Shown here: positions 63,040-64,000 of the stretch, piece after piece
Numbering within the stretch: the stretch's first letter is position 1
Layout of the letters: every line of letters begins with the position of its first letter
Source of the DNA: Escherichia coli
Lineage (GTDB): Bacteria; Pseudomonadota; Gammaproteobacteria; Enterobacterales; Enterobacteriaceae
Assembly: GCF_003018255.1 (NCBI RefSeq)
Contig: NZ_CP027441.1
Direction: 5' to 3' (one strand)
Length of the DNA stretch: 64,000 bases
Translations under genes and position numbers: made by a program
The notes under the pieces: generated by a model
Told to the model about the DNA's origin: nothing
What the model saw: the letters and a program-made list of their open reading frames with translations, nothing else
Database searches by the model: none

Positions 63040-63210
63040 CTACTGCTCATCAGGAAACAGTTTTTTCAGTTCTTCACCGGAAAGTCCGGTTGCCTCCTGA
63101 ATCCGTTCCGGCGGCCAGCCCATATTCCAAAGCCGGCAGGCTATTTCCCGCGCCACTTCAAGAGCACCTTTTTCAAAACCTTTCTGTATAAGACGTTCTG
63201 CAATCGTCAT
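63040..63210 (-). CDS. free-standing Rpn C-terminal-tail-like small ORF (56 aa)
   Basis: MTIAERLIQKG...ATGLSGEELKKLF parallels the tail of the adjacent Rpn-like gene (MTIAERLEQKG...ATGLSDDELKKI); about 230-bp imperfect direct DNA repeat. Confidence 0.45.
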   Translation of the reverse strand: MTIAERLIQKGFEKGALEVAREIACRLWNMGWPPERIQEATGLSGEELKKLFPDEQ

Positions 63211-63272
63211 GCTGTTTGCTCTGCTCCTGCTGGCAAAAAAGCCCGGGATTTTGCCGGGCTTTGCGGTTCTCA

Positions 63273-64000
63273 TCAGTGAGTGATTTTCTTCAGTTCGTCA
63301 TCGGAAAGTCCGGTAGCCTGCTTAATCTGCTCCGGCGTCATCCCCATTTTCTGAAGCTGGCACGCAATAGCCAGGGCTTTTTCAAGCGCTCCTTCCATGC
63401 GTCCTTCCATGCGTCCTTCCATCCTGCCTTCCTGGCGACCTTTTTGCTCAAGACGTTCTGCGATAGTCATCAGTTTATCCTCATGCTGCGGCAGACGCTC
63501 AGCCAGCGCCCGCATAAATTCCGGTGATACAGAGTCCCCTGCGTTAACGATGTAATGAATCAGAACACGCACCTGCTCGTCTGAAATTTCCACCATGACC
63601 TGCGGGAGTTTGTCCAGCAGCTCCATCATGTCACGATGGCGGATATGCTTCATCAGCAGCGTCAGTGCGGCCATCCGGCGATGGTTCATGATTTCATTGT
63701 CATCAACGACAGTGATATCAACCAGCGGAAACGGCTTTGTGTATATTTTAGCCGCAAGCGCCGGTTCCTCAAAACAGTCCAGCCAGTTCATGCTGTACGG
63801 GTACGGGCTGCGCTCACCATGATAGAACAGCACCGGAATCACCAGTGGCAATGTTTTGTGCTGCTCCAGATGTCTCTGCATCGCCGCCACACTGTAACGT
63901 AACATGCGGAAAGGCATGTACAGATTTTCGGTGCTCTGGTGCTCGATGAGCGTATAAACATAGCCGTCTTTACCCCCGGTGGTTTTCACACTCCAGAGGA
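63273..64000 (-). CDS. Rpn-family (YhgA-like, PD-(D/E)XK) recombination-promoting nuclease, N-terminus outside window
   Basis: Frame open to window end; DGYVYTLIEHQS...LPLVIPVLFYHG...PFPLVDITVV core; C-terminal MTIAERLEQKG(RQEGRMEGRMEGRMEG) tail. Confidence 0.7.
   Translation of the reverse strand, partial: LWSVKTTGGKDGYVYTLIEHQSTENLYMPFRMLRYSVAAMQRHLEQHKTLPLVIPVLFYHGERSPYPYSMNWLDCFEEPALAAKIYTKPFPLVDITVVDDNEIMNHRRMAALTLLMKHIRHRDMMELLDKLPQVMVEISDEQVRVLIHYIVNAGDSVSPEFMRALAERLPQHEDKLMTIAERLEQKGRQEGRMEGRMEGRMEGALEKALAIACQLQKMGMTPEQIKQATGLSDDELKKITH
63385..63435. repeat. 12-bp tandem coding repeat (about 3.5 copies) encoding EGRM repeats
   Basis: CCTTCCATGCGT CCTTCCATGCGT CCTTCCATCCTG CCTTCC on the forward strand. 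Confidence 0.7.

Follow-up and report, generated by a model that had tools for sequence, protein, structure and literature searches.

At one end of a 64,000-nt stretch of Escherichia coli DNA (contig NZ_CP027441.1; this whole stretch is called the window), the 3′ part of an rpn gene is followed by a 56-codon open reading frame (ORF) that encodes only an Rpn-type tail. Rpn proteins are a recently recognized toxin–antitoxin and anti-phage family in which the antitoxin gene lies inside the toxin gene, and the role of extra, free-standing tails is a point raised by their discoverers. A preliminary description of the window, made from its letters, had reported a truncated Rpn/YhgA-like gene with a MTIAERLEQKG tail and a 12-bp tandem repeat. 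The ORF list, matches to PF04754 and TIGR01784 and a run of Tandem Repeats Finder confirm that report.

The tails of Rpn nucleases are made from internal start sites as small RpnS proteins, which bind to the toxic full-length nuclease, RpnL, and block it (Zhong et al. 2023, PNAS 120:e2307382120, PMC10400941); the preliminary description was right about such an antagonism. According to the same work (PMC10400941), the first helix of the tail carries 4-aa (12-bp) repeats that begin 8–20 residues past the initiating Met and vary in number among strains, and an RpnS inhibits only its own RpnL, the tail and the exact repeat number both having to agree; a one-repeat mismatch abolishes the effect. 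For RpnC, a single repeat too many ends the inhibition, and there is no cross-protection between RpnAS and RpnBS. The crystal structure of RpnA-S is a compact three-helix fold with a long first helix, a dimerization module that binds RpnL, and HHpred relates RpnS to motifs of the helix-turn-helix (HTH) kind. Separate small genes called rpnSs lie downstream of rpn, both on chromosomes and on plasmids; they include ypaA (rpnESs) behind rpnE, and rpnCSs, and they can disappear through deletion or by becoming fused to the rpn N-terminal domain. Synthesis of YpaA in K-12 was detected by tagging, while the K-12 annotation lists ypaA as a pseudogene. The RpnP2LS system of strain ECOR13 is plasmid-encoded, non-toxic and protective against T-even phages (PMC10400941). 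Our search of the literature after 2023 on RpnSs or DUF4351 found nothing beyond Zhong et al. and the accompanying commentary.

The rpn gene and the small open reading frame behind it

The stretch from 62700 to 64000 is 100% identical to E. coli plasmid NZ_CP027372.1, where the complete rpn gene encodes 308 aa and is annotated as Rpn family. That full-length protein matches PF04754 (Transposase_31/YhgA-like) with an E-value of 8e-79 and TIGR01784 with 180 bits (cut-off 52.1). Taking the translated gBlocks in the bioRxiv supplement of Zhong et al. 2023 as the RpnP2 reference, we found that residues 1–185 are those of RpnP2, save engineered sites and two natural differences. Catalytic residues D14, D66, E86 and Q88 are all kept, with only E86 and Q88 lying within the window; in the inactive RpnP2 '+M' construct, they are replaced by A, A, A and K. 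Divergence from RpnP2 begins at about residue 187 and gives the window's protein a different C-terminal region and a different tail type.

This fused tail, of the E-type, reads MTIAERLEQKG RQEG RMEG RMEG RMEG ALEKALAIACQLQKMGMTPEQIKQATGLSDDELKKITH (ALEK...ITH). Part of its repeat block is an exact tandem repeat (63390–63422; 12-bp unit, 2.8 copies, 100% match by Tandem Repeats Finder). A GAGGA Shine-Dalgarno sequence (63478–63482) stands 7 nt 5′ of the internal ATG and is identical among all E-type loci. By analogy with RpnA–E and RpnP2, the intragenic RpnS of the fused tail is presumably expressed from this internal start site. Within rpn there is also a sigma-70-like site (63745–63772, minus strand; TTGAGG, 16 nt, TAAAAT), some 275 nt upstream of the internal start; going by its consensus match, it could correspond to the promoter for RpnS that Zhong et al. 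depict inside the gene.

The small ORF encodes MTIAERLIQKG FEKG ALEVAREIACRLWNMGWPPERIQEATGLSGEELKKLFPDEQ, which we call an I-type tail. The preliminary description had taken it for a second, diverged tail with its own 56-aa ORF, and pairwise alignment to the fused tail agrees (52% amino-acid identity, E 6e-18), with 36 nt of repeats fewer in the small ORF. The first 7 residues of the two tails are identical, and of their common 21-nt start motif, ATGACNATNGCAGAACGTCTT, the 64-kb window holds exactly two copies, compared to 0.02 expected by chance. The description had also called it a copy of the gene's own tail, which does not hold: E-type and I-type tails share only ~75% DNA identity, and the same I-type ORF is found behind rpn genes with at least three other tail types.

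Several comparisons place the small protein within the Rpn family. It matches the C-terminal positions 217–273 of TIGR01784 (E 3e-7) and the RpnA model (E 6e-4), and a sequence search finds RpnA-S, PDB 7TH0, over residues 1–49 (E 0.0056). Its repeats begin at residue 12. An AlphaFold2 model, built on a 26-sequence alignment, has three helices (residues 3–29, 34–41 and 45–51) and a mean predicted local distance difference test score of 74.6. The top Foldseek match of this model in the PDB is again E. coli RpnA-S, 7TH0 (probability 0.98, TM-score 0.76 on the target, root-mean-square deviation 1.9 Å, 46% identity), with an E-value that is weak (0.41) owing to the small size of the domain. A local Pfam-A scan of a longer, 77-aa version gave no significant family; Zhong et al. 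cite DUF4351, PF14261, for the tail, and many homologues of the small protein carry the precomputed label PF27070.1. In PADLOC, no model matched either Rpn or the small protein.

The 77-aa ORF (63040–63273), which PGAP annotates in many records, was rejected as the gene. Its ATG lies in the TGATGA double stop of rpn and is out of frame in loci with P2-type fused tails, and its N-terminal extension is the translated terminator hairpin. The gap between rpn and the small ORF is 61 nt in related plasmids and 62 nt in the window, so the 77-aa frame is not kept; the 56-aa version is the conserved one.

Conservation of the surrounding signals was followed in 17 loci, read in detail from among ~2,100 IncI/K/B/O-type plasmids. 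The terminator-like hairpin between rpn and the small ORF is kept in all 16 sampled loci with a free-standing copy, including one A..T to G..C double change that lengthens the stem; a consensus terminator scan missed it, and folding then confirmed it. The AGGAG of the leader forms an anti-Shine-Dalgarno duplex of −6.6 kcal/mol, and AGGAG, or AGGGG at 9 nt spacing, is kept in all loci sampled. A second hairpin, at the 3′ end of the small ORF, is conserved in 15 of the 17 loci and has no T-run on either strand. The main text of an RNA sequencing paper on early IncI1 conjugation (PMC12672017) does not mention rpn.

We consider it very probable that the small ORF is an rpnSs-type gene encoding a three-helix Rpn tail. 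The arrangement is already published as a class, RpnSs, of which the plasmid ORF is a further member.

Table 1. Features of the rpn locus at the end of the window
Feature	Position	Strand	Details
rpn, 3′ part, running beyond the window end	63273..64000	−	Rpn/YhgA-like PD-(D/E)XK nuclease with RpnP2-family nuclease domain (from the ORF list); stop codon TGA at 63273–63275, second TGA directly after
Intragenic RpnS frame, E-type fused tail	63273..63470	−	65 aa, MTIAERLEQKG..., internal ATG 63468–63470 (from the sequence)
Four 12-nt (4-aa) units in the first helix of the fused tail	63390..63437	−	RQEG RMEG RMEG RMEG
Intrinsic-terminator-like hairpin between rpn stop and small ORF	63235..63262	−	AGCCCGG-CAAAATC-CCGGGCT + T6; RNA fold −15.8 kcal/mol
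Leader of small ORF	63211..63228	−	AGGAG at 63224–63228, 13 nt before ATG
Free-standing tail gene, probably rpnSs-type, I-type tail	63040..63210	−	56 aa + TAG; ATG at 63210, 62 nt past the rpn stop; stop codon 63040–63042
Single repeat unit FEKG of small ORF	63166..63177	−	0–5 units (FDEG/FKEG/FKKG) there in other plasmids
Perfect 9-bp hairpin	63021..63041	.	AGCCTGGCA-GAA-TGCCAGGCT; overlaps the TAG of the small ORF, before the convergent HTH gene; fold about −17 kcal/mol

Conservation across plasmids and constraint on the small ORF

The locus is very common, being present on ~2,100 sequenced enterobacterial conjugative plasmids, in the leading region and near ArdA and PsiA. Sequence similar to 62700–64000 was found in 2,031 plasmid records, mostly conjugative and of the MOBP relaxase type. 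Using the 56-aa protein as a tblastn query, we matched 2,101 plasmids, with an uninterrupted match over at least 80% of the query in 2,035 (~97%), and the match lengths step by 12 nt (156, 168, 180, 192, 204 and 216 nt). A representative whole-library search with the same query returned 58 matches, mostly fragments and close relatives, a set usable for building alignments and unsuited to estimating distribution.

In all 17 loci the genes come in the same order: a PndC-like ORF and one of 88 aa stand before rpn and the small ORF, after which come a convergent gene for an 83-aa HTH protein, a DUF4942 gene and MobC/NikA, with ArdA and PsiA farther along; this is the IncI-type leading region. The arrangement of rpn and small ORF, on the same strand, is the same at every sampled plasmid locus with a free-standing copy. 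The small ORF is intact in 15 of the 17; it is frameshifted in locus L011 and cut by IS21 in L013. Three loci also contain an extra 129-aa ORF (WP_000833767.1, once annotated 'CbiX') at 686–1075 in L007, 478–867 in L008 and 426–815 in L014. Its 3′ end overlaps the rpn start by 4 nt, so that rpn may have another upstream partner or a different operon structure there.

The free-standing tail is always I-type across these loci, consisting of MTIAERLIQKG, 0–5 four-residue units (FDEG/FKEG/FKKG, with FEKG also seen) and then ALEVAREIACRLRDMGWTPERIQEATGLSGEELKKLFPDEQ. In contrast, the fused tail differs among loci, some having the window's E-type, some the P2-type with its IQQG repeats and some a hybrid. 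Repeat number had been proposed as a likely variable site, and it does vary across plasmids in both tails, from 0 to 4 units in the E-type fused tail and from 0 to 5 in the small ORF. The repeat numbers of the fused and free tails are unequal in 15 of the 15 two-copy loci counted, L017 and L018 (described below) included. The window's own allele of the small ORF reads RLWNMGWPP at codons 26–31 (63118–63135), compared to RLRDMGWTP in most plasmids, and alleles at least 99% identical to it occur in 32 of the 2,101 plasmids.

We calculated the ratio of nonsynonymous to synonymous substitution rates (dN/dS, Nei-Gojobori) for the non-repeat codons of the small ORF and obtained 0.26; the fused E-type tail gave 0.13, the nuclease domain 0.08 and the HTH gene 0.11. 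Synonymous divergence among alleles of the small ORF is 0.11. There are 13 nonsynonymous and 13 synonymous variant types, when 77% would be expected to be nonsynonymous (binomial P = 0.003). Among the three sense frames, dN/dS is lowest in the annotated one, which is free of stop codons; one antisense frame has an equal dN/dS, yet it contains stops. Because of these dN/dS and variant-type results and the conservation of the ORF, we conclude from the comparison of alleles that it is maintained, though less tightly than its neighbours. Simple decay of a duplication, the outcome that the preliminary description had set against its own proposal, is not what these data show, with ATG and AGGAG conserved, the frame intact in most plasmids and a dN/dS of ~0.26.

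Tail arrangements and interpretation

Fused and stacked forms of the same tails were also found. In 16 plasmids (~1%), an I-type tail is fused straight to the nuclease domain behind a normal internal leader and is the sole copy. Conversely, two IncK2/Z plasmids, L017 (NZ_CP032880.1, 1571–2269) and L018 (NZ_CP080261.1, 730–1464), carry three Rpn tails in series: an rpn gene ending in a hybrid (H) tail, followed by free tails first of the E-type and then of the I-type, with a hairpin and a leader in front of each free tail. The number of repeats in the fused hybrid tail is 6 for L017 and 9 for L018, while both free copies are identical between the two plasmids. At the DNA level, this free E-type tail shares 93% identity with the fused tail of the window, and its junction is matched at 99% or more in up to 26 plasmids, two of which were read. 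The arrangements thus form a nested series, from H, E and I through E and I (the window) to I alone. Because the same tail types are found both fused and free, the series is consistent with recombination at the shared 21-nt start, and it would fit either deletion or insertion as the direction of change.

Compared to the published rpnSs genes ypaA and rpnCSs, the small ORF is likewise a tail-only ORF directly 3′ of rpn on the same strand, starts with MTIAERL, has a strain-variable number of 4-aa repeats and can be lost by fusion to the rpn N-terminal domain. It is unlike ypaA in having an intervening terminator hairpin and an AGGAG 13 nt from its ATG. It is also only 52% identical to its neighbour's tail, whereas the ypaA sequence is close to that of its neighbour. 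Moreover, ORFs of the window's kind are of one type behind several fused tails, and on some plasmids there are two in series.

The closest experimental reference is RpnP2LS, whose nuclease domain is essentially identical over residues 1–185, with the catalytic residues kept. Primers AO738, AO740 and AO671 show that the same terminator and small ORF start (LIQKGFD) lie downstream of RpnP2. The fused tails differ, RpnP2 having IQQG repeats and the window's E-type Rpn having RQEG/RMEG. The RpnP2 constructs of Zhong et al. include only 101 bp 3′ of rpn and end 13 codons into the small ORF. Because RpnP2LS was non-toxic and protective with the small ORF truncated in this way, a complete small ORF is dispensable for neutralizing the upstream nuclease.

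The reading that we favour, tentatively and at close to or slightly under an even chance, is that the small ORF serves as an orphan antitoxin and as a donor for recombination, and not as the cognate antitoxin of its neighbour. It would close a short row of tail cassettes lying at the 3′ end of an rpnP2-family gene on a plasmid, with each free-standing unit made up of terminator hairpin, AGGAG leader, ATG and tail. Through recombination at the shared first 21 nt of coding sequence, a tail lying downstream could become joined to the nuclease domain, or a tail could be left free. Under the published specificity rules, the neighbour would not be the cognate partner, because both the tail type and the repeat number are mismatched. 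The product of the small ORF would not neutralize the adjacent E-type nuclease, which has its own intragenic RpnS, and would pair with an I-type RpnL/RpnS of matching length, as found on sibling plasmids. Its translation is probably low and would occur via read-through of the rpn terminator.

A number of observations weigh against an expressed orphan antitoxin of this kind. The terminator hairpin precedes the small ORF, a consensus promoter scan found no promoter for it, and the 12–13 nt spacing of its AGGAG is suboptimal; ypaA, by comparison, lies 12 nt after rpnE, has no terminator in between and duplicates the strong AAGGAGAG of the internal start site. Constraint on the small ORF is weaker than on the fused tail, variable sites are distributed 4, 6 and 9 by codon position, a modest third-position bias, and the window's allele has three uncommon amino-acid changes, located in helix 1 and the loop that follows. 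Both tails may cross-bind to some extent, as helix 1 starts alike in each (MTIAERL.QKG). The fused and stacked forms could be rare accidents and not a switching mechanism in use, and the detailed reading covers the 17 loci, not the whole population.

The preliminary description had proposed a detached antitoxin-like regulator. One part of this proposal stands, as the ORF is an RpnS-type gene of the published RpnSs class; its antagonism of the adjacent nuclease is doubtful. In that role, the free tail would be an auxiliary antitoxin or regulator that tunes the intragenic RpnS, for example by forming mixed dimers. Its position directly downstream on the same strand would allow co-transcription by terminator read-through, the two tails are of the same fold class with identical first residues, and the RpnSs of rpnE (YpaA) is indeed synthesized in K-12. 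Yet the tails differ at 48% of positions and never had equal repeat numbers in the loci counted, when a single extra repeat costs RpnC its inhibition and RpnAS and RpnBS fail to protect across systems; the same small ORF also sits behind rpn genes with quite different tails, and RpnP2LS is neutralized without it. We therefore regard an auxiliary role as unlikely. The terminator, the weak Shine-Dalgarno spacing and the negative promoter scan would equally suit an inert recombination remnant that persists through youth or hitch-hiking, as would the looser constraint, the loss by fusion in ~1% of plasmids, the disrupted copies in L011 and L013, and the pseudogene annotation of ypaA. A remnant is nevertheless quite improbable, given that the frame is open in ~97% of ~2,100 plasmids despite ~10% synonymous divergence between alleles, that dN/dS is 0.26 (P = 0.003), and that ATG, AGGAG and both flanking hairpins are conserved. 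All changes in length are in-frame as well, although a 12-nt unit alone would give that result.

Two further readings deny the small protein an antitoxin function. If the ORF were a DNA-only, silent donor cassette for tail exchange by homologous recombination, with no role for its protein, then the shared 5′ 21 nt and the occurrence of both fused and stacked arrangements would be accounted for. However, a silent donor would not need a conserved ATG, a conserved AGGAG or constraint at the protein level; the events seen are deletions, which use up cassettes instead of renewing them, and no reciprocal or gene-conversion products were identified among the loci. We consider this reading very unlikely. 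The structural matches ranked after 7TH0 are HTH DNA-binding domains (Hin, resolvase and DeoR), which, together with the HHpred relation of RpnS to HTH motifs (PMC10400941), could point to a small DNA-binding protein that regulates, for instance, rpn or the convergent HTH gene. But these HTH matches all have E-values above 1, the one solved relative is a dimerization module that binds RpnL, and no operator-like repeat was found next to the small ORF, making a regulator of this kind scarcely credible.

The favoured reading of an orphan antitoxin and recombination donor has parallels in other systems. Orphan cdiA-CT/cdiI and rhs-CT/immunity cassettes are displaced C-terminal modules kept downstream of the main gene. 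As with the Rpn tails, alternative C-terminal modules stand behind one long gene, share a short conserved junction, recombine to a fused or orphaned state and could keep protective value. There, however, each module pairs a toxin tip with a separate immunity gene, and other cells receive the toxin, whereas a single Rpn tail is both toxin part and antitoxin and acts within the cell; the resemblance is one of layout and implies no homology. Orphan antitoxins also serve as anti-addiction modules that neutralize the toxin of a competing element. The small ORF is similarly an antitoxin-type gene without an adjacent matching toxin, carried on elements that compete by incompatibility. This second parallel is purely hypothetical, including both post-segregational killing by RpnLS and the neutralization of RpnL.

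Extending the parallel, the array of tail cassettes might have a function of its own, supplying orphan antitoxins against the RpnL of incompatible IncI/K/B/O plasmids and allowing tails to be switched when the shared 21-nt start recombines, perhaps with the help of Rpn itself. We think it improbable that the array works in this way, though if it did, it would act in anti-addiction, or as immunity during displacement or co-entry, and each tail switch would also change the antitoxin pairing of the nuclease.

The small ORF sits behind the one Rpn shown to be protective against phage, the RpnP2 family, and the complete ORF is omitted from the published RpnP2 constructs in which defence and toxicity were studied. 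Natural variants with one, two or three tails and alleles with 0–5 repeats offer a convenient system for distinguishing a spare antitoxin from a switching cassette or a leftover. The interest of the locus is modest and lies mainly in this natural series and in that omission.

Other features of the window

Upstream of the DUF4942 gene (61331–62182, minus strand) and near the origin-of-transfer side of the leading region, the intergenic stretch 62183–62660 (plus strand) is predicted to fold as single-stranded DNA into a long imperfect hairpin (−112.5 kcal/mol, z = −6.4 compared to shuffled sequences), strongest at about 62275–62445. This stretch may act as a single-strand promoter or initiation site like those reported from IncI1 and F plasmids (PMC12672017). 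We do not assert that the DUF4942 gene is M.EcoGIX, an identity without support in the paper.

A palindrome, AAAGTGAA-N5/6-TTCACTTT, occurs in two copies 67 bp apart (62654–62679 and 62720–62745), both just upstream of the gene for the 83-aa HTH protein (ATG at 62758). The two copies look like candidate operator sites of this HTH regulator. The HTH protein itself has a weak PADLOC match to mad1 (E 0.003). Elsewhere in the window, two Rfam matches exceed the gathering score: a sok antitoxin RNA at 41087–41244 on the minus strand (119.7 bits) and an AgrB-family antisense RNA at 51679–51767 on the plus strand (51.7 bits).

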